DNA of 64,000 bases from Candidatus Methylomirabilota bacterium (GTDB lineage: Bacteria > Methylomirabilota > Methylomirabilia > Methylomirabilales > 2-02-FULL-66-22), in NCBI GenBank assembly GCA_016209735.1, contig JACQVN010000014.1:4633-68632 (forward strand), written 5' to 3'. The position numbers and the translations under genes were made by a program. The notes under the pieces are model-generated. The model had not been told where the DNA came from. It ran no database searches and was given only the letters and a program-made list of their open reading frames with translations. Below are positions 1,840-53,036 of the stretch, piece by piece. How positions within the stretch are numbered: the stretch's first letter is position 1; the number at the start of each line of letters is the position of its first letter.

Positions 1840-3288
1840 CTACCCCCGTTCGTTCGCGGCCCGCCGTTCCAGGACCGCGACCGCTTCCAGGTGGAAGGTC
1901 TGGGGGAAGAGGTCGACGGGCTGGATCCGCACACAGCTATACCCGACCCCGGCGAGGAGGCCCAGGTCCCGCGCCAGCGTGCTCGGATCGCAGGAGACAT
2001 AGACGATCCTCGGCACACCGAGCTGTCCGAGCGCTTCCAGAACCCGCCGGCTGGCGCCCTGTCTCGGCGGGTCGAGGACCGCCAGGTCCCACGACTCCCC
2101 CGCCAGGTCCGGCAGAAGCTGCTCGACCTGCGCCTGGAGGATCCGCACATTCCCGGCATCGTTCACTCGCACGTTGTAGAGGGCATCCGCCGAAGCCGAC
2201 GGGTGCGACTCGATGCCCACCACCTCCCCTGCCAGCCTGGCCAGAGGGATGGTGAAGGTCCCGACGCCGCAGTACAGGTCCAGCACCCGCTCTTTCCCTG
2301 TCAGCGCGGCCGCCTCGGCCACCAGGGCGGTCAGGGTCTCGGCCGCCAAACTGCTCACCTGGAAGAAGGCGGTGGCATCCACCCGGAACCGATGCTTGCC
2401 GACCTGCTCCAGGATGGCCCCGTGGCCGTGGCGATCCACGAACCGGGGCTGCTGCCGCGACTCGCCTTCCAGGAGGACCACTCCCTGCAGGCTGGGCACG
2501 GATTCCCGCAGGCGATGGAAGAGGAGGCGAAGGGCCGCCCGCTCCCGCACATGGGCGAAGAGCGCCACCATGGCCTCGCCCGTCCCGGCTCCCACCGCCA
2601 TCCACACCTCACGCAGGCCGGGGAAGAGCTGGGAGAGCATGGGCGCGCGCATGCCGCGCAGCCCGCGTAAGAGCGCATTCAATGTCGGGTGCAAGAGCGG
2701 GCACTCTTCCACATCCACGACCTGGTGGCTCTCCCGCCGGTGAAAGCCAATCCGAAGGGCGGACCCGGATTCCTGCCTGCCGTCAGCTATGGGCCCCCTG
2801 GAGCCCCTGCGGCCGCCTCCGGCTCTCGGATCGGAACCCCCCGAGAGCTTGAGCTGTGCCCTGGCCCGGTATCCCCAAGGCGGAAGCGGATTGAGGGGTG
2901 GCTCAACCGGCACGTCAGAGAGCTTCCCAACGCGCACGAGGAGTTCCCGCAGGATCTCCGCCTTCCAGGCGACTTGCCCCTCATGCGTGAGATGCTGCCA
3001 CTGGCATCCGCCGCACGTCCCGAAGTACCGGCAGGCCGGCTGTGCCCGAATGGGCGAGGCCTCCAGGAGTGCTGCCGCCTCGCCGCGGGCAAAATCCCCC
3101 CGTCCCGGCAGCAAGCGAACTTCCAGGAGGTCCTGGGCCGCGCTCAGGGGGACGAAGACGACGCGGCCGTCCTCCAGCCGCCCCAGGCCGTCTCCCTGAA
3201 AAACAAGGCGCTCAATGCGCACACGGACGCCGGGCCCCTTCTCCCGAGGCGCGCCTGACGTGTCGCTCGATGGGAATTCCGATGCCAT
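1840..3288 (-). CDS. 23S rRNA (uracil-5)-methyltransferase family (TRAM + SAM MTase, RlmD/RumA-like)
   Basis: 482 aa. N-terminal TRAM-like region, Fe-S cysteine cluster CRYFGTCGGCQWQH, and SAM-MTase motifs VLDLYCGVGTFT and DPPRQG. Confidence 0.9.
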   Translation of the reverse strand: MASEFPSSDTSGAPREKGPGVRVRIERLVFQGDGLGRLEDGRVVFVPLSAAQDLLEVRLLPGRGDFARGEAAALLEASPIRAQPACRYFGTCGGCQWQHLTHEGQVAWKAEILRELLVRVGKLSDVPVEPPLNPLPPWGYRARAQLKLSGGSDPRAGGGRRGSRGPIADGRQESGSALRIGFHRRESHQVVDVEECPLLHPTLNALLRGLRGMRAPMLSQLFPGLREVWMAVGAGTGEAMVALFAHVRERAALRLLFHRLRESVPSLQGVVLLEGESRQQPRFVDRHGHGAILEQVGKHRFRVDATAFFQVSSLAAETLTALVAEAAALTGKERVLDLYCGVGTFTIPLARLAGEVVGIESHPSASADALYNVRVNDAGNVRILQAQVEQLLPDLAGESWDLAVLDPPRQGASRRVLEALGQLGVPRIVYVSCDPSTLARDLGLLAGVGYSCVRIQPVDLFPQTFHLEAVAVLERRAANERG

Positions 3289-3547: not shown

Positions 3548-3964
3548 TTACCTGCCGGGACCTCCGCGCTGGCCGGGAAACCGTGGCCGAGGCTGACCGG
3601 GCGCCTGTGGACGCGGACGGTCCTCCTCCCTCCGGTCGCGCTGGCGTCGGAATTCCTCGCGGAGGCGCTGCCGCTCCTGGGGCGGTAGCTTCCGATAGGT
3701 GTCGAGGTTTCGCCGGATGCGCTGCTTTTCCTCGGGGGAGAACTGCTTCCAGCGTTCGTAATTCTCCCGGATGCGCCGCTGCTCCTCGGGGGACAGCCGC
3801 TGCCACCGTTCGAGATTCTCCCGGATCCGCGTCTGCTCTTCGGGGGAGAGAGTCTCCGGGCCCGCCACGGCCCCGGCGGAATGCGCCGGCCGGGAGGGGC
3901 CCGGACCGCCGACAGTCAGCACCACCAGCACGGCGCCCCCCAGGACAAGGAGCGGCCGCCTCAT
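3548..3964 (-). CDS. DUF3106-like periplasmic repeat protein
   Basis: Signal peptide followed by four repeats of SPEE(Q/K)xRIRxNxxRW(Q/K). It follows an ECF sigma/anti-sigma pair, which is usual for this family. Confidence 0.75.
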   Translation of the reverse strand: MRRPLLVLGGAVLVVLTVGGPGPSRPAHSAGAVAGPETLSPEEQTRIRENLERWQRLSPEEQRRIRENYERWKQFSPEEKQRIRRNLDTYRKLPPQERQRLREEFRRQRDRREEDRPRPQAPGQPRPRFPGQRGGPGR

Positions 3965-5734: not shown

Positions 5735-5827
5735 CTAACCGCGGCGCTGATGTCTGGTCTTCTTGAGCAATTTCTTATACTTGTGCTTGCGGATCTTCTT
5801 TCGGCGCTTCTTGACGACGCTGCTCAT
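5735..5827 (-). CDS. 30-aa highly basic protein, AURKAIP1/COX24-domain (ribosomal bS22-like)
   Basis: Below the ORF-track size cutoff. Translation: MSSVVKKRRKKIRKHKYKKLLKKTRHQRRG. Pattern matches remembered mycobacterial bS22 ([30 protein letters not shown]...). Its ATG overlaps the TGA of the upstream regulator as ATGA. Confidence 0.65.
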   Translation of the reverse strand: MSSVVKKRRKKIRKHKYKKLLKKTRHQRRG

Positions 5828-7326
5828 GCCATCCCCCCTTTCCGGACCTCGGGCTCTTGCTCCGTTTGCGGGCCGTCAACCGCCGTCGGCTGCGGCGATC
5901 CCTCGGCCCCCGCATTCTCTCCGCCGCCGTCACGGCGGATGTGATACTTCTCGAGCCGGTATTGGAGCGTGCGGTAGCTCAAGCCCAGGAGCTTGGCCGC
6001 CTTGGCCACCACCCCGCCTGACTGCTGCATGGCCTGTAGGATGAAATCCCGCTCGACCTCCTCCAGATTGATCCCCTGCGGGACGAGGAGATAGCGCGTC
6101 CCTCCGGCGGATGCCGCGGGGGGCGCCTGGGGCTCCTCCTGGGGGAGGGTCGAGAATCGGACCTCGATGGGAAGATCCGCGATGTCGATCCTCTTGCCGT
6201 CCGACAGGAGGGCCGCCCGCTGCAGCACCGCCTCCAACTGTCGGACATTGCCGGGCCAGGGGTATCGGGTGAGGAGGCGCATCGCCTCCGTGGTGATGGG
6301 CAGGGGCGGACGCCCCCCTTCCCTGCAGACCCGGGCGACGAAGTACTCCGCCAACTGCGGGATATCGGTGCTCCGCTCCCGCAGGGGCGGGACAGTGATG
6401 GTCACCACGTTCAACCGGTAGTAGAGATCCTCTCGGAACGCCCCCCGGCGGACCTCGGTCTCCAAGTCTTTGTTGGTGGCCGCCAGGATCCGCACGTCCA
6501 CCTTGATGTCCTCGCGGCCGCCCACTCGGCGGATGGTGCGCTCCTGGAGCGCGCGCAGGACCTTCGCTTGCATGTTGACGGACAGCTCGGCCACCTCGTC
6601 CAGAAACAACGTGCTCCGGTCCGCGCCCTCGAAGAGGCCTTGGTGGCGGCCGATCGCCCCGGTGAACGACCCCCTCTCGTGCCCGAACAGCTCACTCTCG
6701 ATGAGGCTGTCGGGAATCGCCGCGCAGCTCACGGCCACGAAGGGTCGGTCCTTGCGTGGGCTATTCCGATGGATGGCGCGCGCGATCAGCTCCTTCCCGG
6801 TGCCGGTCTCCCCGGTGATCAGCACGGTCGAGGTGCTGTTGGACACCTTGTGAATCTTGGCGAACACCTCCTGGAGGCGGTAGTGGCTGCCCACCAGCCC
6901 TTCCACCCGGAACCGCTCTTCCAGTTGCCGCCGCAGGAGGCGATTCTCCTCGATCAGGCGGATCCGCTCGAAAGCCCGGCTGACCGTGTGAAGCAAGTCC
7001 TCGCGGTTGAGTGGCTTCGTGAGGTAATCGAAGGCGCCCTGGCCCAGGGCCCGCTCCGCCGAGTCCATGGACCCGTACGCCGTCATCAGGATGACGAGGG
7101 TGGGAGGGTCGTCCCGGGTAAGCCGCTGGATGAGCGACATCCCATCCTCGCCCGGCATGCGGAGATCGGTGAGCACCAGGTCGAACCGGGTGGCCTCGCT
7201 CAGGGCCACGGCCTCGGCCACGCTTCCCGCCGACTCCACCCGGTAGCCGTCGGCCCCCAGGATCGTGCGGAGGATCTCCCGCTGCGCGGCCTCGTCATCC
7301 ACCACCAGGATCTGCCCCTTGCTCAT
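5824..7326 (-). CDS. sigma-54-dependent response regulator (REC + AAA+ + Fis-type HTH; NtrC family)
   Basis: DDE...D receiver domain, GETGTGKE Walker [16 protein letters not shown] (GAFTGA-type loop), and C-terminal HTH LLGLSYRTLQYRLEKY. Confidence 0.95.
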   Translation of the reverse strand: MSKGQILVVDDEAAQREILRTILGADGYRVESAGSVAEAVALSEATRFDLVLTDLRMPGEDGMSLIQRLTRDDPPTLVILMTAYGSMDSAERALGQGAFDYLTKPLNREDLLHTVSRAFERIRLIEENRLLRRQLEERFRVEGLVGSHYRLQEVFAKIHKVSNSTSTVLITGETGTGKELIARAIHRNSPRKDRPFVAVSCAAIPDSLIESELFGHERGSFTGAIGRHQGLFEGADRSTLFLDEVAELSVNMQAKVLRALQERTIRRVGGREDIKVDVRILAATNKDLETEVRRGAFREDLYYRLNVVTITVPPLRERSTDIPQLAEYFVARVCREGGRPPLPITTEAMRLLTRYPWPGNVRQLEAVLQRAALLSDGKRIDIADLPIEVRFSTLPQEEPQAPPAASAGGTRYLLVPQGINLEEVERDFILQAMQQSGGVVAKAAKLLGLSYRTLQYRLEKYHIRRDGGGENAGAEGSPQPTAVDGPQTEQEPEVRKGGMA

Positions 7327-8936
7327 TCCCCGGGTACTCCTGCCGGAAGGCGCACGCAGGCCACCGTGCCCTTTCCGGGGGTGCTGGTGAGGGAGATCTC
7401 GCCGCCGTGCTCCTCGATGATCTTCCTGGTCAGGGCCAGGCCCAGGCCGATCCCCACCTCCTTGGTCGTGAAGTACGGCTCGAAGATCTTGCCCAGATTC
7501 TCCTCGGAGATCCCAATCCCGGTGTCGCGCAGCTCCACCTCAACCCAGTCGGTGGATGGCAGAGGTCGGGGGTCGGGGATTGACGAATGACGAATGACGA
7601 ATGACGATTGCAAAGCGTCCCCCGGCCCCCCGGCCCCTGGCCCCTGGCCCCCATCCCTCTCGCCCTGTGCGCCGTGCGCCGTGCGCCGTGCGCTATGCCC
7701 CGTGCCCTGTGCGCTGTGCGCTGTGCCCCGTCGCGTCGCCACCGACAGCTCGCCCCCCTCCGGCATGGCCTGCAGGGCGTTCAACGCAAGGTTCACGAAG
7801 CAGGTCTTCAAGTGTACCGGGTCCGCCCACAGTGGGGGGAGACCCTCCTCGGCGGTCCGGCGCAGCCGGACTCGCTGTGCGGCGGCGCGGGGCGCCGCCG
7901 TCTCCATGACCTCGTCCAAGAGGGTCGACAGGTTGCAGGCGCGGCGCTCCAGCTTGAGGGGCTTGCCGTACTTGAGGAAGGTCTCGATCATCTCGTTCAG
8001 CCGCCCGATCTCACCCATCATCATGGACGTGAGGCGCTGGAACTCCTCGCGGGCCTCCGGCTCGCGGGGTGCATGCTGGGCCGCCAGATGGCCGATGGTC
8101 ATGCTGATGGTGCTCAGCGGGTTCCGGACCTCGTGGGCGATGCCCGAGGCGAGATGGGCAATGGCCGATAGCCGCTCCGCCCTGTGCAGACGCGCCTCCA
8201 GGTCCACTTTCTGCCGCAAACCGTCCACCATCTCGTTGAAGCTCCGATTCAGCTCGCCGATCTCGTCCCGCCGGTTCACCGGCAGCCGCTCTTCGAGATG
8301 CCCCTGGGCGACGCGCTGGGCGGCTTCGACGACGCGGAAGATCGGCTTGTGGTAGGTCCAGGCCAGGACGACGGCGCCACCCATTCCGACGCCGAAGACC
8401 AGGACCGTGGCCACCAGTCGCTTCAGGAAGTTGATCCGGGACAGCTCCGCGAAATCGTCCAGGATCATGCTGATCAGAATGTACCCGCTTCGCTGGTTAT
8501 TCACGACGATCGGCACAATCAGGTTGTAGGTCCGCTGCGGGAAGTCGCGGGTGGGAGTCCCCTCCCCCAACCGGGCCGTGATCAGAAGGTCCTTCCGCCT
8601 GGGGTCCACCCGGACTCCGACCCGCCGGGGGTTGGACGAGGCGATCACCTCCTCCTCGTTGCTCACGATCGAGATCTCCCGGACGCCGCGCCGCTGGAGC
8701 CGCTGCACGTAGTCGTTCAGCCGCGCTTCCGTCGTGCGGCCCCGGGAGGTGAGCTGCTCCACACTGATCTGGATGGCCGTGCTCAGATCGGTCGTATGCC
8801 GCTCGACCTGGGAAATGAGCTGGATCTCGGCTCGCCAGTAGAGCAGAAAGAGGGTTGCCAGGATCAGCATCAGCAACCCGAACATCATGGCGAGCATTTT
8901 CCCTCGGAGTCCGAGGGTGAGCATCCGCGGCCACAT
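7323..8936 (-). CDS. sensor histidine kinase (TM-HAMP-HisKA-HATPase_c) with low-complexity insertion
   Basis: H-box SGIAHEVRNPL, N-box FVNLALNALQA, G-boxes DTGIGI and GIGLGL. ATGA overlap with the downstream response regulator. Start taken at ATG 8936 (MWPRMLTLG...). Confidence 0.9.
   Translation of the reverse strand: MWPRMLTLGLRGKMLAMMFGLLMLILATLFLLYWRAEIQLISQVERHTTDLSTAIQISVEQLTSRGRTTEARLNDYVQRLQRRGVREISIVSNEEEVIASSNPRRVGVRVDPRRKDLLITARLGEGTPTRDFPQRTYNLIVPIVVNNQRSGYILISMILDDFAELSRINFLKRLVATVLVFGVGMGGAVVLAWTYHKPIFRVVEAAQRVAQGHLEERLPVNRRDEIGELNRSFNEMVDGLRQKVDLEARLHRAERLSAIAHLASGIAHEVRNPLSTISMTIGHLAAQHAPREPEAREEFQRLTSMMMGEIGRLNEMIETFLKYGKPLKLERRACNLSTLLDEVMETAAPRAAAQRVRLRRTAEEGLPPLWADPVHLKTCFVNLALNALQAMPEGGELSVATRRGTAHSAQGTGHSARRTAHGAQGERDGGQGPGAGGPGDALQSSFVIRHSSIPDPRPLPSTDWVEVELRDTGIGISEENLGKIFEPYFTTKEVGIGLGLALTRKIIEEHGGEISLTSTPGKGTVACVRLPAGVPGE
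7563..7730. repeat. intragenic word-repeat block inside the kinase ATP-binding domain
   Basis: Serial blocks of GGTCGGGG x2, GACGAAT x3-4, CC(C)CTGGCC x3 and GTGCGC(C/T) x7. Translated in frame as GTAHSAQGTGHSARRTAHGAQGERDGGQGPGAGGPGDALQSSFVIRHSSIPDPRP. The same words occur in intergenic elements at 11055 and 38970. Confidence 0.8.
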
Positions 8937-9309
8937 CTGCCTAGCCTCCAACCCGGGATAGTGTATCCAAGCCTTGGCCCCCCTGTAAAGGCCGAACCCT
9001 CTCCGGAGCGGAAAGCCGACCATTCGACGCCCCGGCGGCGAGGCGCCTCGGCTTGCAGATTTCGAGTATCCTACCCCTCAGGGCGTTGCGGCTCAACCTC
9101 ATTGCGTCGCGGCGGGAAGGTTTTCCCGCTGCCACAGGCGGACGATGGAACGGGGCGGAGGATACTCGGGCAAGCGCCGGTCCGCAAGGCTCACCTGGGT
9201 TGCGCCAACCCGGGCGAAGCTGTTTCTCGCGTTCGGGGGAGATCGGCGGCGTGAAATGGCCGTCAGGTCCGGCCTGACAAGGCGGGGGGGAATGTGTTAG
9301 CATGCGGCC

Positions 9310-9813
9310 ATGTCCGGCGATCATGCCGCCAATCCGGCTGCCGAGCCGCCGCGCTTTCTCGTGGACACCATGCTGGGCCGACTGGCCACCTGGCTGCGGA
9401 TCCTGGGGTGTGACGCGGCATACTTTCGGGGGGAGGATCGCGCCCTCCTCGACCAGGCTTGGCGGGAAGATCGCATCTTGCTGACCCGGGACGCGCGGCT
9501 GCTCAGGCGTCGCCGGCTGCCGCCCCACCTGACCATTACCAGCGACCGCGTGGCGGAGCAATTGCGGCAGGTTGTCCGGGCCTTCGGCCTGCAGCCGTCC
9601 CGCCTGCCCGCCCGGCGCTGCCCGCGCTGTAATCTCCCCCTGACGGAGAGGGACAGGGAGAGCGTGGCGGGACGGGTGCCCGAATTCGTCTGGAGTCACC
9701 ACGAGGCCTTCTGGGCCTGCCCCGGCTGTCAGCGGATCTACTGGGCCGGCAGTCACCGGCGGCGGATGGAGGAATCCCTGCGGCGACTCGCCGCAGGGAT
9801 TAATGACCAATGA
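9310..9813 (+). CDS. Mut7-C RNase domain protein (PIN-like + Zn ribbon)
   Basis: FLVDTMLGRLATWLRILGCD..., LLTRD, and C-terminal CPRCN...CPGC zinc ribbon. The stop codon lies inside the repeat at 9801. Confidence 0.8.
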   Translation: MSGDHAANPAAEPPRFLVDTMLGRLATWLRILGCDAAYFRGEDRALLDQAWREDRILLTRDARLLRRRRLPPHLTITSDRVAEQLRQVVRAFGLQPSRLPARRCPRCNLPLTERDRESVAGRVPEFVWSHHEAFWACPGCQRIYWAGSHRRRMEESLRRLAAGINDQ

Positions 9814-9945: not shown

Positions 9946-10896
9946 ATGCGACTGGTGTTCATGGGAAGCCCAGCCTTTGCCGTGCCCGCGCTGGAACGGC
10001 TGCTGGCCGACGGGCACAGCCTCCCTCTGGTGGTCACGCAGCCGGATCGGCCGGCGGGCCGGGGGCAGTCCTTCGCCTCCCCGCCGGTGAAGGTGGCGGC
10101 GACGCGCCATGGCCTCCCCCTGCTGCAGCCTCACCGCCTCGCCGATCCGCCCACCCTCGCCACGCTCCGCGCGGCCGCCCCCGAGCTGATCGTCGTGGTC
10201 GCCTTCGGCCAGTTCCTCCCCCGGGCCATCCGGGAGCTCCCGCCCATGGGCGCCGTGAACGTCCACGCGTCCCTGCTGCCGAAGTATCGCGGGGCGGCCC
10301 CCATCAACTGGGCGATCATTCGGGGGGAGCGAGAAACGGGAGTGACCATCATGCGGGTCGAGGCCGGCATGGATTCCGGCGCCGTGTTGCTGCGCCGCGC
10401 CTGCCCCATCCTGCCGGAGGACGAGGCGGGGACGCTCCACGACCGGCTGGCTCTCCTCGGCGCCGACGCCTTGGCGGAGGCCCTCTCGCTCATCGCCCGC
10501 CATGAGGATTCCTGGCGGCCGCAAGACGAGGTCGAAGCGACCTTCGCCCCGAAGATCGGCGATCGGGACTGTCAATTGGATCTGTCGCAGAGCCCCGCCG
10601 ATCTGGTCAACCGGATCCGGGGACTCTCGCCTGCCCCCGGGGCCTACCTCCGCGGGGCGAGCGGGCGGCGCCTCAAGGTGCTGCGGGCGGCGGCGGCGGA
10701 CGGGGCAGGCAAGGCCGGAACAGTCATATGCGTGGACGGCGACGGTCTGGTCATCGGGACCGTCGGCGGACCCGGGGGGATTCCCGCTGCGGGCGCCCTG
10801 GCCCTGCTGGAGGTCCAGCCTGAAGGCAAGCGGCGGATGAGCGGGAGCGAATATGCCCGAGGACGGCGTCTGGTCGAGGGGATGCCTTGCATCTGA
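9946..10896 (+). CDS. fmt: methionyl-tRNA formyltransferase
   Basis: MRLVFMGSPAFAVP...VVTQPDRPAGRG...NVHASLLPKYRGAAPI, the canonical Fmt motifs. Confidence 0.95.
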   Translation: MRLVFMGSPAFAVPALERLLADGHSLPLVVTQPDRPAGRGQSFASPPVKVAATRHGLPLLQPHRLADPPTLATLRAAAPELIVVVAFGQFLPRAIRELPPMGAVNVHASLLPKYRGAAPINWAIIRGERETGVTIMRVEAGMDSGAVLLRRACPILPEDEAGTLHDRLALLGADALAEALSLIARHEDSWRPQDEVEATFAPKIGDRDCQLDLSQSPADLVNRIRGLSPAPGAYLRGASGRRLKVLRAAAADGAGKAGTVICVDGDGLVIGTVGGPGGIPAAGALALLEVQPEGKRRMSGSEYARGRRLVEGMPCI

Positions 10897-10899
10897 GAA

Positions 10900-11147
10900 G
10901 GGGGACGATGGGGAGACGGACTATGGACCATGGACGGTGGACCATAAGAATTGGGACGGGGGAACGGACGATGGGAACACCGACCATGGACGGTGGACCA
11001 TGGTCCACAAGAACTGGGGACCGTCTCACCCGCTCCCCGCCCCCCACGCCATGCGCCGTGCGCTGTGCGCTTTGCTCTGTGCGGTTCTTATCGTCCATGG
11101 TCGATGGTCCATGGTCCGTCTTCCCGCACGTTCAACGTTTAACGCTC
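10900..11147. repeat. composite nested word-repeat element filling the fmt-rsmB spacer
   Basis: GGACCATGG words (10921-11005) face CCATGGTCC words (11093-11118). Between them are GTGCGC words (11050-11085), and AACGTT words sit at 11128-11146. Confidence 0.85.
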
Positions 11148-11161
11148 ACAATGGGATAGCA

Positions 11162-12547
11162 ATGGGGCGCATGGCTGATGGCTCACGGCAGGCGGGACCG
11201 GCGACGGCGCGGGGTATCGCCTTCGAGGTTCTCCGGCGCGTGGAAGCCACAGAGGCCTATGCCAACCTACTGCTGGATGCCCGGTTGGGCCGGGCCCGGC
11301 TGAGCCTGCCGGACCGCGCCTTGGTCACCCACCTCGTTTACGGGGTGCTGCGCTGGCGCGGCAGGCTGGACTGGATTCTGGCTCAAGTTCTCGATCGACC
11401 GCTGGCCGAGGTGGAGCCCCGAGTGCGACACGTCCTCCGCCTCGGTGCCTACCAGCTCTGCTGCCTCGACCGCGTGCCTGCCTTTGCCGCCGTCGATGAG
11501 AGCGTGAGCCTGAGTCGCACCGCCGGCGCCACCCGGAGCGCCGCCTTTGTGAATGCGGTCCTCCGGGCAGTGGCCCGTCGCGCGCCCTTCCCGGAACCCT
11601 CCGCCGCGGAGGATCCGGTCGGCTTCTGGTCCAGCGTGGGCTCGCACCCGCCCTGGCTCGCCGAACGGTGGATCGCACGGTACGGCCCCGGAGAGGCCGG
11701 CCGGTTGATGGCGGCCAACAACGAGATTCCCCCGGTCACCGTGATTGCCAACCCGCAACGCATCGATCCGGAGAGCCTGAGGCGCTCCCTGAGCGGCGCG
11801 GGGCGGGAAATCGCCCCCGGCCGCATGGCCCCCGGGATCTTCCACGTGACCGGAGGGGGCGCTCTGCAAGACCTGCCGGGATACGCCGAGGGGCATTTCG
11901 TCCCCATGGACGAGGCGGGGATTCTTCCCGTGCTGGCCCTCGATCTTGCCCCGGGCCAGCGGGTGCTCGACGCCTGCGCCGGCGGCGGCGGGAAGAGTGC
12001 GCTCATCGCGGCCCGGGTGGGCCGGGAGGGGGTCGTCACGGCGGTGGACGTGAGTCCCCGGGCCATTCGGCGCCTGTCCGTGGCGGCGGCACGGCTGGGC
12101 TTGGAGTTCATCCGGACGGAACTCCAGGACGCCAGGACCTTGGGGAGATCGTTGCCGGGCGAGTTCCCTCGCGTCCTCCTGGACGCTCCCTGCACCGGCC
12201 TGGGGACCTTGCGTCGCCGACCGGAAATCAAGTGGCGCCGCCGCCCCGCCGACGTGACACGTGCCGCCACCCTCCAGGCCGAGCTGTTGGCGGGCGTCGC
12301 CGGCGCGGTGGCGCCGGGCGGACTTCTGGTGTACAGTACCTGCAGCCTTGAGCCGGAGGAAACGGAGGCGGTGATCGCCGGATTCCTGGGTACGCATCGT
12401 GAGTTCCGGCCGGCCGATCCGCCGGCCGCAGAGTCCGGCACGGCCCTGGCAGAGCTGGCCGACCCGACGACGGGCTTCCTGCGGAGCATCCCGCACATCC
12501 ACGGGTCGGACGGCTTCTTCATCGCGCGCCTCACCCGAACATGCTGA
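11162..12547 (+). CDS. rsmB: 16S rRNA (cytosine967-C5)-methyltransferase RsmB/Sun
   Basis: NusB-like N-terminal domain, SAM motif LDACAGGGGKS, catalytic DAPCTG and YSTCS. Start at ATG 11162 inside track ORF 10853..12547, whose first 100 aa are repeat-encoded. Confidence 0.9.
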   Translation: MGRMADGSRQAGPATARGIAFEVLRRVEATEAYANLLLDARLGRARLSLPDRALVTHLVYGVLRWRGRLDWILAQVLDRPLAEVEPRVRHVLRLGAYQLCCLDRVPAFAAVDESVSLSRTAGATRSAAFVNAVLRAVARRAPFPEPSAAEDPVGFWSSVGSHPPWLAERWIARYGPGEAGRLMAANNEIPPVTVIANPQRIDPESLRRSLSGAGREIAPGRMAPGIFHVTGGGALQDLPGYAEGHFVPMDEAGILPVLALDLAPGQRVLDACAGGGGKSALIAARVGREGVVTAVDVSPRAIRRLSVAAARLGLEFIRTELQDARTLGRSLPGEFPRVLLDAPCTGLGTLRRRPEIKWRRRPADVTRAATLQAELLAGVAGAVAPGGLLVYSTCSLEPEETEAVIAGFLGTHREFRPADPPAAESGTALAELADPTTGFLRSIPHIHGSDGFFIARLTRTC

Positions 12548-13455: not shown

Positions 13456-14130
13456 ATGTGGGGACAGGGAGGCGAAAAAGTCGTCAAGATCGCTCCGTCG
13501 GTCCTCTCGGCGGACTTCGCCAGTCTGGCGGAAGAGATCGCCAAGGTGGAAACCGCGGCGGACCTCCTGCACGTCGACGTGATGGATGGACACTTCGTAC
13601 CCAACATCACCGTTGGCCCGCTGGTCGTCGAGGCCATGCGGAAGCGCACCCGCCTCCCTCTGGATGTCCACCTGATGATTGAAGCGCCGGAGCGGTACAT
13701 TGCCGCCTTCGCCCGGGCCGGGGCCGCCTCCCTCACCGTGCACGTCGAGACGTGCCCCCACCTCCACCGCACCCTCCAGCAGATCCGCGAGGCAGGCCCC
13801 AAGGTCGGCGTGTCGCTGAATCCCGCCACTCCCTTGGCCGCGCTGGATTACGTGCTCCCCGACGTGGATCTGGTGTTGGTCATGTCGGTGAATCCGGGGT
13901 TCGGCGGGCAGCGATTCATCCCCGCCGCCCTGGGGAAGATCGCAGAGCTGGCGCAACGTGTTCGCGCCCTGCCGTCGCCGCCGGAGCTGGAAGTGGACGG
14001 GGGCATCAAACTGGAGAACTGTCGCGAGGTGGCCGCCGCCGGCGCCACAATCCTGGTGGCCGGATCCGCCATCTTCGGCGCGGCCGATCCCCGGGCAGCG
14101 GTTGAGGAAATGCGGAGGCGAGTGGGATAA
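13456..14130 (+). CDS. rpe: ribulose-phosphate 3-epimerase
   Basis: IAPSVLSADF...HVDVMDGHFVPN...MSVNPGFGGQ..VDGG. Start at ATG 13456 inside the track ORF. Confidence 0.95.
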   Translation: MWGQGGEKVVKIAPSVLSADFASLAEEIAKVETAADLLHVDVMDGHFVPNITVGPLVVEAMRKRTRLPLDVHLMIEAPERYIAAFARAGAASLTVHVETCPHLHRTLQQIREAGPKVGVSLNPATPLAALDYVLPDVDLVLVMSVNPGFGGQRFIPAALGKIAELAQRVRALPSPPELEVDGGIKLENCREVAAAGATILVAGSAIFGAADPRAAVEEMRRRVG

Positions 14131-14134
14131 GAGT

Positions 14135-14170
14135 CCGGCGGTTCGGCAGTACGGCGGTACGGCAGTACGG
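14135..14170. repeat. left arm of cassette bracketing the four-helix-bundle gene (GTACGGC words)
   Basis: CCGGCGGTTCGGCAGTACGGCGGTACGGCAGTACGG. Its reverse complement matches 14630-14656 (CCGTACTGTCGTACTGCCGAACC). Confidence 0.85.
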
Positions 14171-14187
14171 ATGGAAGAGACGAGAAG

Positions 14188-14610
14188 ATGGCGGGAATCA
14201 GACGGTTTGAAGATCTAATATCCTGGCAGGCGGCTCGTACTCTTGCACGTATGGTCTACCAATTGACCAAGGGCGAGGCATTCGAGGCAGACCGCGACCT
14301 TCGCTGGCAGCTCCGAAGCTCCGCCGTTTCGCCAATGTCCAATATCGCTGAAGCCTTCGGGCGGTATTCCTTCGAGGACAAGCGCCGTTTTCTCGACATT
14401 GCCCTCGGATCCTGTAAGGAAGTCCAGAGCCATCTGTATGTGGCCATCGATCAGGGCTACATTACCAGGGGCCAGTTCCGGGAGACTTACGACCAAGCCG
14501 AGACCGTCGGCAAACTGGTCACAGGCAGTCTGGCCAGCCTTGAAAACCAACTCACCAACCGACGGCCCGACCGAAGACGGTCACGCCCGGGCACGAGACA
14601 ATCCGCATGA
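14188..14610 (+). CDS. four-helix-bundle protein (23S rRNA intervening-sequence protein family)
   Basis: FEDLISWQAARTLARMVYQLT...LRWQLRSSAVSPMSNIAEAFGR....D..RFL.IALGSCKEVQSHLYVA...GYI, matching the remembered family pattern. Confidence 0.85.
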   Translation: MAGIRRFEDLISWQAARTLARMVYQLTKGEAFEADRDLRWQLRSSAVSPMSNIAEAFGRYSFEDKRRFLDIALGSCKEVQSHLYVAIDQGYITRGQFRETYDQAETVGKLVTGSLASLENQLTNRRPDRRRSRPGTRQSA

Positions 14611-14626
14611 TAATTACATCCGCTAT

Positions 14627-14730
14627 CGAACCCGCCGTACTGTCGTACTGCCGAACCCACCTCCCGCCGTACTGCCCTGCTTTCGTGCCCTCGTACCGTC
14701 GTACTGTCGTACCGTCGTACCGCCGTACCC
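14627..14730. repeat. right arm of the four-helix-bundle cassette (GCCGTAC words)
   Basis: CGAACCCGCCGTACTGTCGTACTGCCGAACCC...CCGTCGTACTGTCGTACCGTCGTACCGCCGTACCC. Expanded tandem words complementary to the left arm. Confidence 0.85.
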
Positions 14731-18158: not shown

Positions 18159-18253
18159 CTTGCCATTTGCGATTGCAGATTGAAGGCTTGCCTGATTCAA
18201 TCGCATCCCGAAATCTGAAATCGCACATCGCAAATCGAAAATCTGAAATCAGG
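18159..18253. repeat. word-repeat hairpin (GCGATT/AATCGC, CAGATT/AATCTG words)
   Basis: CTTGCCATTTGCGATTGCAGATTGAAGG..TGATTCAATCGCATCCCGAAATCTGAAATCGCACATCGCAAATCGAAAATCTGAAATCAGG. Lies between the smpB stop and the nagB start. Confidence 0.8.
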
Positions 18254-18755
18254 CCTCGTACCGGTCGGCGCGTCCCCGCGAGGCCCGCGCCACCTCTCGC
18301 TCGGCTTCCCGGGCCTTGATATCCTCCCGGCGGTCGTATGCCTTCTTCCCGCGCGCCAGCCCCAGCGACACCTTCACGTAGGGCCCCTTCAGGTACAAGC
18401 TCAGCGGCACGAGGGTCAGACCCTTCTCCTCCACCTTGCCGATGAGGCGCCGGAGCTGCTCTCGGCGCATCAGGAGCTTCCGCGGCCTGAGCGGATCGGC
18501 GTGGAATCTCCCGGCCTGCTCGTACGGGCTGACGTGGCAGTTCCGCAGAAACAATTCCCCGCGCTCGAAGGCGGCATACCCATCGCGCAGGTTGGCCCGC
18601 CCCTGCCGGATGGACTTGACCTCGTTTCCCTGGAGGACGATGCCGGCCTCGAAAGTCTCCTCGATATGGTAGTCGTGGCGGGCCTTGCGGTTGCCGGCCA
18701 GGAACTTCACGCCTTCGGCGCCGGTCGTGGCGGATTTCCGCTGGACATGGGCCAT
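18249..18755 (-). CDS. smpB: SsrA-binding protein
   Basis: Start at ATG 18755. NRKARHDYHIEETFEAGIVLQGNEVKS.R.G.ANL.D.Y......E.FL.N.H.SPY...........R.RKLL..R.E...L. Confidence 0.92.
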   Translation of the reverse strand: MAHVQRKSATTGAEGVKFLAGNRKARHDYHIEETFEAGIVLQGNEVKSIRQGRANLRDGYAAFERGELFLRNCHVSPYEQAGRFHADPLRPRKLLMRREQLRRLIGKVEEKGLTLVPLSLYLKGPYVKVSLGLARGKKAYDRREDIKAREAEREVARASRGRADRYEA

Positions 18756-18789
18756 GGCGGACCGCGTTATCTGCCCGGCCGAAAGAGTC

Positions 18790-19254
18790 TCACGCCCGTT
18801 CCGGCCCGAGGATGTCGCCGAGGGAGTCGAGGCACACCTGGGAAAGCTCCTCGACCCAGCGAAGACCGTATATGGCCCGGTCCGAAGATTCTCCGGGCAG
18901 AAGCGATGTCCACACCACTTCGGCCGCCAACCGGGACGCGATCGTCGCGCCGGGGAGCCAAATCTGTAGCCGCGTGCGCGGGGGGAGAGAGACGCCCCGG
19001 AGCCTGAGCGCCGCCCCACTACGGCTCACATTGAGCAGGGATCCGGCGAAGGCACGGCCGAAGGAAACCTGCCAGGCATGGATGAGGGCGGCGCGAACGG
19101 GAATCACCGCCCTGCGCCGGGGGAACCGGCGGGGAACCTGCGCACTCTCGGATGGTGGCGCCTTCTGACGCTGGAGACCAGACTCACTCACCTCCCCCTC
19201 CTGGGGGGACGCACGGCCCGCTGGTTCTTCTTGCCCGTCACGCGTATTGACCAT
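18790..19254 (-). CDS. PilZ domain protein
   Basis: RRFPRR...V.V... and LLNVSRSGAALRL, which fit the PilZ RxxxR / (D/N)xSxxG motifs. The N-terminal 40 aa are low complexity. Confidence 0.6.
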   Translation of the reverse strand: MVNTRDGQEEPAGRASPQEGEVSESGLQRQKAPPSESAQVPRRFPRRRAVIPVRAALIHAWQVSFGRAFAGSLLNVSRSGAALRLRGVSLPPRTRLQIWLPGATIASRLAAEVVWTSLLPGESSDRAIYGLRWVEELSQVCLDSLGDILGPERA

Positions 19255-30783: not shown

Positions 30784-30888
30784 CGGGTGTGCGGAAGTTC
30801 GAGGGTTCGGGGGTTCGGGGTGCGAGTATTCGAGTGTGCGGCGGTTCTGGGTGTCGTCGCTTCCCGAACCGTCGAACCGCGGAACCGG
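30784..30888. repeat. word-repeat hairpin (GGTTCGG / CCGAACC words)
   Basis: GGGTGTGCGGAAGTTCGAGGGTTCGGGGGTTCGGGGTGCGAG...TTCCCGAACCGTCGAACCGCGGAACCGG. Occupies most of the 117-nt smc-Roadblock spacer, beginning 3 nt after the smc stop. Confidence 0.8.
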
Positions 30889-30898
30889 AGGCTTTCCC

Positions 30899-33903: not shown

Positions 33904-35007
33904 CCGTAACAGGGGACGCCCATGAAATTATGATATTCTCAGCTCGCGAAACGAGACGCCTGTCGTCACCCCGTAGCGCTCGCCGCGGCACACCGCCCGG
34001 CTGACCGCCGACTGCGTGATTCCCAGCGCGGCTGCCACAGCCGTCCCGGGCAGCCCCAATTCGCGCACGGCCCAGTAGCAGACAAGGCTCCGGGCCTGGG
34101 TGCGCCGGGGTTGCTTACTAGGGACTCGCAGTTCCTCGGGCGTGAGCGCGAAGCGCGCAGCCACGCGCCGGAGGAGCGACTCCAGATCCACCCCGCGTGC
34201 CCGAAGTTGGTCTCGCCGCTCTCGCTGTTCCTCTGCCGCCCGCAGGGCGCTCTCGACAAACTCGCCGTCTCCGAGGATTCGCTCGTCTCCTTTCACCCGC
34301 TCGGTCCGCCGCTGCGCTGTGAGAGCCCGCCAGCCGCCTGCACTCCGGACCAGGCCTCCCCCGGTCAACTCAGAACGGCGGCCGAGCGGGATCCCCTCCG
34401 CCACGAAGGCCCAATACCGCCTTCTGGCGGTCGCGACCCGGCGCCCGAACTGGGCCAGCACTGCGTCCGTGTCCTGCCACGGACTCTCCGCTTTCCCCAT
34501 CAGGCGACTGTGGCCACCATAGGCGTACCGATCCAGGGCCGGCAGGGCGTCCACCAGCTTGGCACGGAGCGGGTTCAGGTGGAGGTAGCGGACAAGTTCG
34601 AGAAAGTACGATTCCTCCTGGCATAGGATGGACTTGTACCGGTTCTGGAAGAGGTAGCCGTGTCGTCGGTGGCGCCGGTTGTAGCTCGCGGCATACCCGG
34701 TGAGGATGCGGCTCATGACAGTCGGCAGAGGGACCGTTCCTGTTCGGAGGAGGAGGTGCACATGGTTCGGTAGGAGGGACCACGCATAGCAGGAGGTTCT
34801 CGTGCTGGTCAGTATATTTCCGAGGCGGGCCACAAAGTCGTCCCTGTCCGCATCGTCGCGGAACACAGGCTGCCGCTCGATGCCGCGGCAAATGACGTGG
34901 TGGAGCGCCCCGGGCGCATCCAGGTGAGCTCGGCGAGGCATAGAAAGTTTATAGCACAACCCTCACGAAGAAGAAACTCATGATTTCATGGCCGTCCCCT
35001 ATTAACC
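33904..35007 (-). mobile_element. RAYT-type (IS200/IS605-like Y1) transposase unit with imperfect terminal inverted repeats
   Basis: Left end CCGTAACAGGGGACGCCCATGAAATTATGA (33904-33933, overlapping the CDS stop). The reverse complement of the right end (34978-35007) is GGTTAATAGGGGACGGCCATGAAATCATGA. About 24 of 30 positions match. Confidence 0.7.
33928..34941 (-). CDS. REP-associated tyrosine transposase (Y1 HUH) with C-terminal DnaA-C-like HTH
   Basis: Start at ATG 34941. HHVICRGIERQPVF, HUH motif LLPNHVHLLL, YLFQNRYKS, catalytic-Tyr context VRYLHLNPLRA, C-terminal LPGTAVAAALGITQSAVSRAV. Confidence 0.85.
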   Translation of the reverse strand: MPRRAHLDAPGALHHVICRGIERQPVFRDDADRDDFVARLGNILTSTRTSCYAWSLLPNHVHLLLRTGTVPLPTVMSRILTGYAASYNRRHRRHGYLFQNRYKSILCQEESYFLELVRYLHLNPLRAKLVDALPALDRYAYGGHSRLMGKAESPWQDTDAVLAQFGRRVATARRRYWAFVAEGIPLGRRSELTGGGLVRSAGGWRALTAQRRTERVKGDERILGDGEFVESALRAAEEQRERRDQLRARGVDLESLLRRVAARFALTPEELRVPSKQPRRTQARSLVCYWAVRELGLPGTAVAAALGITQSAVSRAVCRGERYGVTTGVSFRELRIS

Positions 35008-38487: not shown

Positions 38488-38955
38488 ATGGCGCAGACCT
38501 GGGAAGGGAACCTGTTGGCGTCGGGCCTCCGCTTTGCCCTCGTGGTCAGCCGGTTCAACGACTTCATCACGGCTCGCCTCCTGGACGGGGCGCTGGATGC
38601 CTTACGGCGCCACGGCGCGGAGGAGGAGCGGCTGACCGTGGTCCGGGTCCCCGGATCTTACGAGATCCCCCTAACCGCCAAACGGCTTTCCGCGTCGGGT
38701 CGGTACGATGCGGTAATCTGCCTCGGCACGGTCATTCGCGGCGCCACCCCGCACTTCGACTACGTCGCCAGCGAGGTGGCCAAGGGGGTGGCCGCCGCGG
38801 CGCTGGAGACCGGTGTCCCCATCACCTTCGGGGTTCTTACCACCGAGACCCTGGAACAGGCAATCGAGCGAGCCGGCTCCAAGGCGGGGAACAAGGGCTT
38901 CGACGCCGCCTGCTCGGCCATCGAGATGGCAAATCTCTTCAAGCAGATGAAATAG
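38488..38955 (+). CDS. ribH: 6,7-dimethyl-8-ribityllumazine synthase
   Basis: Start at ATG 38488 (AAAGGAG upstream). [40 protein letters not shown]. Confidence 0.95.
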
Positions 38956-39058
38956 CAGGGATCAGGGATCGGGGGCCGAGAGCCGGGGGTTGGGGGTTGG
39001 AGCTGATCAGCCGCCCGCTCCCGTCCCCTAACCCCCGACCCCCGGCTCCTGATCCCTG
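38956..39058. repeat. word-repeat hairpin (GGGATCA / GGGGGTT words) in the ribH-nusB spacer
   Basis: CAGGGATCAGGGATCGGGGGCCGAGAGCCGGGGGTTGGGGGTTGG ..loop.. CCTAACCCCCGACCCCCGGCTCCTGATCCCTG. Starts 1 nt after the ribH stop. Confidence 0.85.
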
Positions 39059-39071
39059 CCGAAAGCTGATC

Positions 39072-47491: not shown

Positions 47492-47531
47492 CAAATGGCA
47501 ACTGGACAACCTGGCAACTGGGCGATTGGGC
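47492..47531. repeat. left arm of cassette (GGCAACTGG words)
   Basis: CAAATGGCAACTGGACAACCTGGCAACTGGGCGATTGGGC. Its reverse complement matches the words of 47961-48028. Confidence 0.8.
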
Positions 47532-47588
47532 TCACAGGCCTCCTCGAACAATGTCTCATAAGTTCGGCGACGTATCTTGCGACAATGA

Positions 47589-47693
47589 GCCCGCCCTGCT
47601 TCCCGCTCACCCTTCGACGGGCTCAGGGTGAGCGGGAGGGACGACATACCTGGATCCGCGCACCCCGAGTCCTGAGCTTGTCCCAGGATCGAA
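47589..47693. repeat. reverse-orientation copy of the 15.8-kb MITE-like core
   Basis: The reverse complement reads CTTCGATCCTGGGACAAGCTCAGGACTC...CGCTCACCCTGAGCCCGTCGAAGGGTGAGCGG, aligning with 15774-15875. Confidence 0.75.
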
Positions 47694-47960
47694 GTGGGAG
47701 CGGGTCTAGTTGCGTCGCCGGAATCTCGGCCGCTAGTGCCCAGCCTCTGGCACTCCCCATCGCTAAGTCCTGCCGTTCGCAATTACGCTCACATGAGTCG
47801 GATATCCGTTCGCCCTGCGTAGGGGCGAAGCATGCTTCGCCCCTACATGTCGAAGGGCGACGCGACGTTCGTGGTTCGACGGGCTTCGTCGCGAGCTCAG
47901 CCGAGCGGCTCACCACGAGCGGGCGGAATACGTTAGCGTAATAACGACCGAGAGCACTAA

Positions 47961-48028
47961 GTCGCCCAGTTGCCCGATTGCCGTTCTTCCGTTCCCAGTT
48001 GCCCAGTCGCCTGGTTGCCGGATTGCCG
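47961..48028. repeat. right arm of cassette (CCAGTTGCC words)
   Basis: GTCGCCCAGTTGCCCGATTGCCG...CCCAGTTGCCCAGTCGCCTGGTTGCCGGATTGCCG. Ends 3 nt before the sucD stop codon. Confidence 0.8.
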
Positions 48029-50696: not shown

Positions 50697-50727
50697 CCGA
50701 GTCGACCCTCCCGCGAAGACTACCGGC

Positions 50728-50802
50728 GCTCAGCCATCAGCGGTCAGCCATCAGCAACCCTGAGCGGCCGGCGTGCCGGGCTGACCGCTGATTGCTGATT
50801 GC
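50728..50802. repeat. word-repeat hairpin (CAGCCATCAG words)
   Basis: GCTCAGCCATCAGCGGTCAGCCATCAGCAACC..loop..GGCTGACCGCTGATTGCTGATTGC. Lies between the mdh stop and the lipoprotein start. Confidence 0.85.
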
Positions 50803-50806
50803 TCTC

Positions 50807-53036
<2,230 letters not shown>

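Follow-up and report, generated by a model that had tools for sequence, protein, structure and literature searches.

A tract of tandem 7-nt repeats is translated in frame inside the ATP-binding domain of a sensor histidine kinase from an uncultured NC10 (Methylomirabilota) bacterium. It lies at 7563..7731 on the minus strand of a 64,000-nt stretch of contig JACQVN010000014.1 (positions 4,633 to 68,632; 'the window' in what follows), within a gene that occupies 7323..8936 on the same strand. The tract is probably a passenger: an intergenic-type array element, related to long simple sequence repeats (SSRs) and to repetitive extragenic palindromes (REPs), which would have been copied into a permissive turn of the enzyme, reshaped there by slippage and nesting, and translated as a disordered peptide without a role of its own. 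Our best reading is that it belongs to a family of 7/8-nt tandem-array intergenic repeats, often hairpin-forming, that are common in high-GC NC10 genomes, and that the turn, which links the N box with the G1 box, is a tolerated, fast-changing landing site and not a designed part of the enzyme.

The insertion and its anatomy

The kinase has HAMP, HisKA and HATPase_c domains, each of which exceeds its Pfam cut-off. Its longest open reading frame (ORF) extends to 9023; a public protein of 537 aa (P0001, from a candidate division NC10 metagenome-assembled genome) is 100% identical to it and starts at the Met at 8936. The HATPase_c match is confined to profile positions 35-109, the domain being split by the insert. 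The motifs NALQAM (7764..7781, minus strand), DTGIGI (7509..7526, minus strand), FEPYFTTK and GIGLGLA are all present and conserved, and the N, G1, F and G2 boxes are intact; the first two motifs are the upstream and downstream anchors of the variable turn, and the F and G2 motifs lie beyond it. Judged from these four boxes and the HisKA phospho-acceptor, the protein qualifies as a histidine kinase with an HATPase_c domain of the Bergerat fold. Its nearest NCBIfam similarities are to AtoS and ZraS, and its top relative of solved structure is ZraS (9jfj). It shares with ZraS/AtoS-type kinases that are paired with NtrC-type sigma-54 activators the order HAMP-HisKA-HATPase_c and a response regulator (5824..7326, minus strand) with Response_reg, Sigma54_activat and HTH_8 domains; it differs from them in the length of its turn, 61 residues and not 4, and in scores that fall far under the NCBIfam equivalog cut-offs. 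The start of the regulator gene overlaps the kinase stop by 4 nt, so that a frameshift in the tract would also hit coupled translation.

An earlier note on this DNA, made from the letters alone, had proposed that the repeats form an insertion, possibly disordered, in a surface loop. In the alignment with ZraS, kinase residue 402 corresponds to chain residue 162 and residue 464 to 167, leaving 4 residues in ZraS where the window protein has 61. An AlphaFold2 model built with 118 aligned orthologues gave a predicted local distance difference test score (pLDDT) under 50 for residues 410-458, with confident strands on either side (395-404 and 464-471). In the Bergerat fold, the hairpin that connects the N box to the G1 box is made of these two strands. 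Alignment and model thus bear out both parts of the proposal: the tract is an insertion in the solvent-exposed turn of the ATP-binding domain that joins the N-box strand to the G1-box strand, and the insert is predicted to be disordered. The catalytic motifs and the reading frame are all unharmed by it.

The tract consists of 24 successive 7-nt units and codes for about 56 of the 61 residues of the turn. Tandem Repeats Finder resolved it into four adjoining period-7 arrays: GGTCGGG x2.1 (7564-7578), TGACGAA x3.9 (7581-7607), CCCCCGG x4.7 (7619-7652) and GTGCGCC x9.3 (7667-7731). Read on the coding strand, nine RGCGCAC or RGGGCAY units are followed by two transitional ones, five GGGGSCN units, a short spacer, four TCGTCAT units and two CCCCGAC units. 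The first block (7667..7729, minus strand; GTGCGCY on the plus strand) has no complementary partner within the tract. The second, or G-arm (7618..7652, minus strand), reads GGGGGCC AGGGGCC AGGGGCC GGGGGGCC GGGGGA, has five G-runs of at least 4 on its sense strand, and has its homologue in the loop G-arms of orthologue loci L001, L014 and L002. The third, (TCGTCAT)x4 (7581..7607, minus strand), is nested at the apex, with the G-arm to one side and the C-arm to the other; it may be compared to the (AACGTTSA)5 array that sits at the apex in L002 but not in L001. The C-arm (7564..7580, minus strand; ATCCCCGACCCCCGACC) has its homologue in the (CCCCCNN)n arm shared by L043 and L044.

The periodicity of the tract stands out from the rest of the window. 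Its lag-7 self-identity over 168 nt is 0.73, compared to a mean of 0.275 (standard deviation 0.048) for all 168-nt stretches of the window, and the lag-7 peak of the entire 64 kb (0.739) starts at 7564. The some 165 nt of serial word blocks reported earlier in the kinase gene are therefore confirmed, as four period-7 arrays that make up the strongest lag-7 stretch of the window. Lag-3 identity is not raised (0.25), that is, there is no codon periodicity. With head-to-tail 7-nt copies well above chance, the tract qualifies as a long SSR, or heptanucleotide tandem repeat.

Reading of the minus-strand frame gives RGTAHSAQGTGHSARRTAHGAQGERDGGQGPGAGGPGDALQSSFVIRHSSIPDPRP, which is stop-free within the ORF 7323..9023, so that the frame is preserved, as had been noted. 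The peptide is rich in Gly, Ala, His, Ser and Pro, and its tryptic peptides include TAHGAQGER and DGGQGPGAGGPGDALQSSFVIR; a protein-word search with the 60-residue insert peptide returned no candidates. The opposite strand has stops in all three frames, because TGACGAA carries TGA; for the same reason the TCGTCAT block is translatable in its present orientation only.

All 24 units share one 7-nt register, broken by a single +1 slip at GGGGGGCC, and neighbouring blocks shade into one another (RGCGCAC to AGGGCAC to AGGGGCC). This is what could be expected if slippage had amplified 7-nt motifs on the spot in an ordinary variable loop, without any contribution from other loci; heptamer slippage has been proposed as a general property of bacterial replication (PMC4679880 and PMC4692102, both citing Mrazek 2007). 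We nevertheless hold such a purely local origin to be unlikely, since specific 7/8-mers, and whole architectures including a spacer, are common to the loops and to unlinked intergenic elements, and since an entire cassette was found swapped between near-identical genes, as described below.

As for folding, the nine-unit RGCGCAC block is unpaired, whereas the GGGGSCN block (7618-7652) pairs with the CCCCGAC block (7564-7580) around the TCGTCAT array in minimum-free-energy structures. The view that the tract has no complementary arm therefore holds for the former block and fails for the latter, and the description of a tolerated half-element in a surface loop stands for the insertion and the surface turn but not, given this inner stem, for the half-element. 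A hairpin of the whole tract was rejected: as sense RNA it folds no better than shuffled sequences (z-scores of +1.1 and +0.2 in two runs), leaving a local stem only. The complement of the tract had a fold z-score of -2.6.

Arrays at the same turn in related kinases

The idea of a single odd insertion proved too narrow, for the same turn is filled recurrently in orthologues and paralogues. Among 110 NC10 orthologues, the spacing from N box to G1 box ranges from 25 to 83 residues (79 in the window protein). In high-GC NC10 genomes (GC 0.64-0.73) the turn is made of 7- or 8-nt arrays whose units are lineage-specific: (GGGGNCN)n..(CCCCCAN)5 in L001 and L014, these arms in L002 too, around a nested (AACGTTSA)5 at the apex of the hairpin, (GGCAATCC)4..(GATTGCCN)4 in L008, L009 and L025, GCCGAGA units in L007 and (CCCCCNN)6 in L043. 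The remaining in-gene 7/8-nt arrays of the related NC10 loci are likewise found in this turn of the HATPase_c domain, in four paralogous PAS/GAF histidine kinases (L005 2162-2182; L006 2187-2216 and 4541-4569; L002 4222-4251), and an unrelated metagenome kinase (L113) has (GTGCGCN)3 there. Comparison of these sequences thus indicates that the N-box/G1 turn is a recurrent, rapidly turning-over array site in orthologues and paralogues.

Orthologues in repeat-poor genomes lack the segment. The Methylomirabilis oxyfera clade (GC 0.60-0.63) and the deltaproteobacterial homologues have short turns without arrays, and their loci are nearly free of 7/8-nt arrays overall; a homologous segment in repeat-free genomes, which according to the earlier note would have spoken against an insertion, was not found in them. 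In a neighbour-joining tree, P0045 and P0006 are basal within the clade of the window protein, and both are short-turned. The turns of these two proteins, of the M. oxyfera clade and of ZraS measure 4-14 residues.

An assembly artefact or chimera in the metagenome-assembled contig would also account for an odd tract, and the window gene comes from one source assembly; moreover, assemblies break at such arrays, as in a truncated database protein (P0118) that ends inside one with a tail taken to be an artefact. This explanation is extremely improbable, as the frame and both flanks are intact and arrays occur at the same codon positions in dozens of independent assemblies (NCBI, JGI, ENA, Logan).

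The five closest loops could be aligned, and share the start of the RGCGCAC arm and a C-rich arm. The closest orthologue, L042 (83% identity), has a full hairpin, GGCGCACAGGGCACAGGG..CCCTGTGCCCTGTGCGC, formed by the RGCGCAC arm of the window and its complement; it has two to three RGCGCAC units, compared to nine in the window. On the strength of this alignment we infer that, in the lineage of the window, the RGCGCAC arm would have expanded to nine units while its partner arm was lost, and that (TCGTCAT)4 would have arisen at, or been inserted into, the apex of the inner G/C stem.

Many of the orthologue loops are true hairpins with both arms translated, and have fold z-scores of -2 to -3 (L005 -3.2, L025 -3.1, L042 -2.9, L013 -2.85, L009 -2.6). 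Here the question of a selected function arises: a hairpin, a G-quadruplex-prone DNA or mRNA, or a disordered peptide might be retained at the turn for its effect, possibilities being translational pausing between the two parts of the ATP-binding domain, an influence on the stability or processing of the mRNA, or a loop that serves for docking or as a spacer. A hairpin-forming array at exactly this turn in most high-GC orthologues, five of which beat their shuffles as just listed, would fit such a function, as would two unrelated cassettes of equal architecture and length (L167 and L168, see below) and the five G-runs of the tract, G-rich heptamer repeats having been reported to form G-quadruplexes (PMC4692102). 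We consider it rather unlikely all the same. The window tract as mRNA folds no better than shuffles, the short-turned kinases manage with 4-14 residues, the loop peptides of close relatives are unrelated, and the same arrays are found in linkers of unrelated proteins and in intergenic DNA.

The loops change faster than the genes around them. Within protein clusters at 90% identity, the loop jumps between unrelated types; unrelated loops were found in 33% of pairs at 95-98% backbone amino-acid identity, and still in 6% of pairs at 98% or more. Reading of the same DNA in another frame, or its inversion, was rejected as the explanation of unrelated loops in near-identical genes, since the DNA itself differs. 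L043 and L166 are near-identical genes, of which L166 alone has a (CAGGGRC) array of about 10 units. The kinase operons of L167 (3700-3800) and L168 (3255-3350) are about 98.5% identical outside the loop, and their flanks differ by 0-2 mismatches per 60 nt as far as the edge of the loop; their cassettes are unrelated 8-mer hairpins, (GGCAATCC)4.. and (GGTCAAnn)4.., equal in length and alike in architecture. Loop content differs between operons that are about 98.5-99% identical in DNA. Differences in unit number among close relatives (the window and L042; L166 and L043) are of the kind expected from slippage. The turnover of the loops may stem from allelic exchange by way of their conserved flanks, from ectopic conversion with intergenic copies as donors, or from arrays that collapse and expand again under hairpin-templated correction.

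Varying unit numbers among close relatives recall a contingency (phase-variable) switch, in which a one-unit change would shift the frame, truncate the kinase before G1 and G2, and uncouple the regulator, giving a heritable ON/OFF state. The tract contains the perfect runs (TCGTCAT)x3.9 and (GGCGCAC)x3.5, and simulated gain or loss of one unit led to a stop at residue 496 or 528 and not 566, with loss of ATP-binding motifs. As in the phase-variable loci of Neisseria, Haemophilus and Helicobacter, a unit that is not a multiple of 3 lies within an ORF. In contrast to those loci, the arrays are short and imperfect (84-88% matches) and sit late in the gene of a free-living environmental bacterium. 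No frameshifted allele was seen, every full-length orthologue observed in the assembled contigs being in frame. Two truncated database proteins do not end at frameshifts and were rejected as such alleles: P0119 ends at a contig end, and P0118 terminates inside the loop array with a 'EERRVGKECRSR' tail, which we take to be an artefact of assembly or of an adapter; assemblies would then tend to break at such arrays. A switch at this site is therefore distinctly improbable.

A more far-reaching possibility, which we regard as unlikely, is that the N-box/G1 hairpin of high-GC Methylomirabilota kinases is a true cassette site, where hairpin-array elements would be exchanged or rewritten at the strain level by a dedicated or hairpin-templated process, with changes of length or frame tuning or switching two-component signalling.

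Array families outside the kinase

The 7/8-nt arrays of the window are almost all intergenic. Hairpin islands of 7-nt arrays are found at 10900..11150, between fmt and rsmB (fold z-score -6.4), and at 38950..39065, immediately upstream of nusB (z-score -6.2); further hairpin islands lie at 50715-50810 (z-score -5.4) and 30785-30895 (z-score -3.3). Words of the tract had been claimed to recur in the elements at 11.05 and 38.97 kb. For the first this is well supported: GTGCGCNGTGCGC has nine matches in the window with at most one mismatch, compared to 1.09 expected, and none of 100 shuffles reached nine; two of the matches lie at 11051-11070 on the same strand, within a GTGCGCN array (11051-11083). 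For the second the case is weaker. The nusB island holds CCCCGACCCCC on its plus strand, the complement of the GGTCGGGG word, and relatives of GGTCGGGGGTCGGGG with two mismatches lie at 39026-39047 on the opposite strand, yet the four matches compare to 1.5 expected and 9 of 100 shuffles reached four. The GACGAAT and CCCTGGCC arrays have no second array anywhere in the window. The GTGCGCN block of the 10.9-11.15 kb island is unpaired, as is its counterpart in the tract.

The sharing extends to related genomes, and the units of the tract are of intergenic type, as the earlier note had it, with relatives in intergenic elements of the window and beyond. In L009, the layout (GGCAAYNN)4-spacer-complement occurs in the loop and again 2 kb away in intergenic DNA (9280-9350), with unit and architecture shared. 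In its second half, the L013 loop agrees with intergenic elements found in L001 and L002, both in units and in a spacer, 'GCCGCGA..GGGCTGCCTACTGC'. Unit families of the loops, and once the spacer too, thus recur as intergenic hairpin elements of the same or related genomes.

The earlier note had counted the kinase as the second case, after a methylase, of repeats entering coding sequence. Which gene was meant is ambiguous, and neither candidate sustains the count. The Pfam homology of RsmB begins at residue 118 of its longest ORF, past a Met at about 11163, so that the arrays at 10918-11117 are intergenic, and no 7/8-nt arrays were seen in the other methyltransferase gene (1840-3288). The longest RsmB ORF does cross the 250-nt array island (10853-11163), and gene callers may over-extend RsmB through it.

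A scan of metagenome contigs for (GTGCGCN)3 revealed arrays of this type in other proteins as well. Among the matches listed, many were array hairpins located just downstream of stop codons. Of these listed matches, arrays lay deep in ORFs in 21 cases and were intergenic in 41, which is an under-representation in ORFs if the coding share of those contigs is about 80-85%, as we assumed. In-ORF arrays of three to four units were found in an E2 acyltransferase linker (twice), in the interdomain region of NadE and in the linker between the lid and the helix-turn-helix of a sigma-54 activator; others lay in N-terminal regions of other proteins or near termini. In five metagenome contigs (L049, L156, L068, L076 and L113) the arrays are translated as PRTAHGA-like heptapeptides. 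Targeting specific to kinases is weakened by these linkers, those of E2 acyltransferases, NadE, the sigma-54 activator and others. As arrays occur both in the kinase turn and in linkers of other proteins, the simplest rule would be that they persist only in flexible exposed segments, of which the N-box/G1 turn is one.

Several other features of the window were recorded. The SmpB ORF (18249-19019, minus strand) has about 107 residues before the SmpB domain (residues 108-247), so that its start may be wrongly assigned; immediately past its stop comes a GAAATCG array (18210-18250). A gene for a 23S rRNA-intervening-sequence (IVS) protein (approximately 14187-14600, plus strand; PF05635, E = 6e-29) stands between two 8-mer arrays that are complementary to each other, one of AGTACGGC type (14124-14170) and one of CCGTACTG type (14632-14729), some 465 nt apart; the whole (14124-14729) looks like a stem-flanked IVS-type cassette. 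A second complementary pair of 8-mer arrays (47497-47525 and 47961-48019, region 47497-48019) encloses 436-471 nt without a convincing ORF or Rfam match, and inside it lies a perfect GTAG-tagged palindrome of 28 nt (47819-47846), of which the window has no other copy. Within a DUF3106 gene (3548-3964, minus strand), a tandem repeat at 3713-3849 (2.5 copies, 81% matches) has a period of 54 nt, which is divisible by 3 and sets it apart in kind from the 7/8-nt arrays. Scans with Rfam and for tRNAs turned up nothing in the window.

Origin of the tract and comparison with known repeats

The history that we propose begins with an element arriving in the turn as a copy from another locus, by ectopic recombination, gene conversion or some transposition route. 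Slipped-strand gain and loss of units, together with nested arrays arising at the hairpin apex, would then remodel it. Selection would act only on tolerance by the protein (a length that is a multiple of 3, no stop in frame, an undisturbed fold), and the peptide would most likely have no function of its own.

Several observations weigh against this history. Neither a mobilising enzyme nor a target-site duplication nor a conserved terminal tag was found for the elements, and the copying is therefore deduced from shared families alone. The window gene is known from a single assembly, and its unit numbers could be slightly mis-assembled. Hairpins are kept at the turn in many orthologues (z-scores of -2 to -3 in L005, L009, L013, L025 and L042), which could mean a selected structure, although the window's own tract, unlike theirs, has no significant fold. 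The near-identical flanks of L167 and L168 are not easily explained by simple slippage or by an ordinary recombination tract. Finally, stop codons would filter such arrays only weakly: of 77 non-loop arrays, 72 have all three frames open when read in at least one direction. Filtering by stop codons was accordingly set aside as the cause of the few in-gene arrays, though it does explain the orientation of the TCGTCAT block.

One lead to a mobiliser was found in the window. A protein of 343 aa (33928-34959, minus strand), resembling REP-associated tyrosine transposases (RAYTs), has an N-terminal IS200-like Y1 transposase domain (Y1_Tnp, Pfam score of 34.2 bits for a cut-off of 23); it scored 63 bits with the NCBIfam model REP_Tyr_transpos, under the cut-off of 80. 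Such a protein might mobilise hairpin repeats, but it is a lead only: no 7/8-nt arrays were seen in the flanks of this gene at 33.9 kb, and nothing ties it to the arrays. By inspection, neither the tract nor the islands at 30785-30895, 38950-39065 and 50715-50810 have a GTAG or CGTC tag of the REP kind at their ends; the only GTAG-tagged palindrome seen in the window is the single-copy one mentioned above. As to miniature inverted-repeat transposable elements, many array copies have inverted arms, but their units differ between copies, and no duplication was found at the nested insertion (L002 compared to L001) or at the cassette replacement (L167 compared to L168), both of which look like substitutions.

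Entry of palindromic repeats into genes in frame is already known (PMC10969869, PMC3733652), and different REPs can strike about the same site in orthologous genes, as in recB of Xanthomonas (PMC3733652). The closest parallels are the Rickettsia palindromic elements (RPEs; Ogata et al. 2000, 2002) and the intragenic GTAG/CGTC REPs (Di Nocera et al. 2013, PMC3733652; PMC10969869). There too, short palindromic repeats of intergenic type lie in frame in genes that are still functional, and add 20-50 residues at surface positions. The tract is RPE-like in being an intergenic-type palindromic repeat placed in frame in a conserved gene, at a spot compatible with the fold, the copy in the window being partly palindromic only. 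No element or peptide is conserved across insertions, loop peptides and units being unrelated among lineages. The present system further differs in that its arms are tandem 7- or 8-nt arrays, with a unit that changes with the lineage and no fixed consensus, that it has no GTAG or CGTC tag, that unit copy number changes between near-identical genes, and that one histidine kinase turn is struck repeatedly.

In construction the tract is closer to the heptanucleotide long SSRs, such as the cyanobacterial short tandemly repeated repetitive sequences (STRR), GGGNATC of Xanthomonas and Nostoc (PMC4692102) and TAACTGA of the Beggiatoaceae (PMC4679880). Heptameric SSRs are over-represented, intergenic and variable among relatives (PMC4692102, PMC4679880); an excess of heptamers was noted by Mrazek et al. 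2007, as cited in PMC4679880 and PMC4692102. The likeness covers 7-nt tandem units that are mostly intergenic and near gene ends, inverted pairs of which some are able to form stem-loops, length and sequence that vary between close relatives, and under-representation in coding regions. In the NC10 case, by contrast, several distinct units are joined in one island, 7- and 8-nt families occur together, and the island is translated inside a conserved enzyme domain, whereas the cited studies treat coding cases as rare exceptions. The tract, in short, behaves like RPEs and intragenic REPs and is built like heptanucleotide long SSRs. A search of the available literature on repeats in NC10 or Methylomirabilis found no description of such repeats.

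For annotation, split HATPase_c matches and over-extended ORFs are to be expected in such genomes; for assembly, contig breaks at such arrays. If the site were a true strain-level cassette site, it would amount to more than tolerated junk, namely to a module of environmental bacteria that is hypervariable or phase-variable. Known in-frame entries of intergenic palindromic repeats into genes, such as the Rickettsia RPEs and intragenic REPs, are few; here, tandem 7/8-nt arrays mark one exact turn of a very common enzyme domain as a reused permissive site. The differing cassettes in operons about 98.5-99% identical provide a natural time series for the origin, nesting, expansion and replacement of such elements, and the same series bears on the birth of new disordered protein segments.

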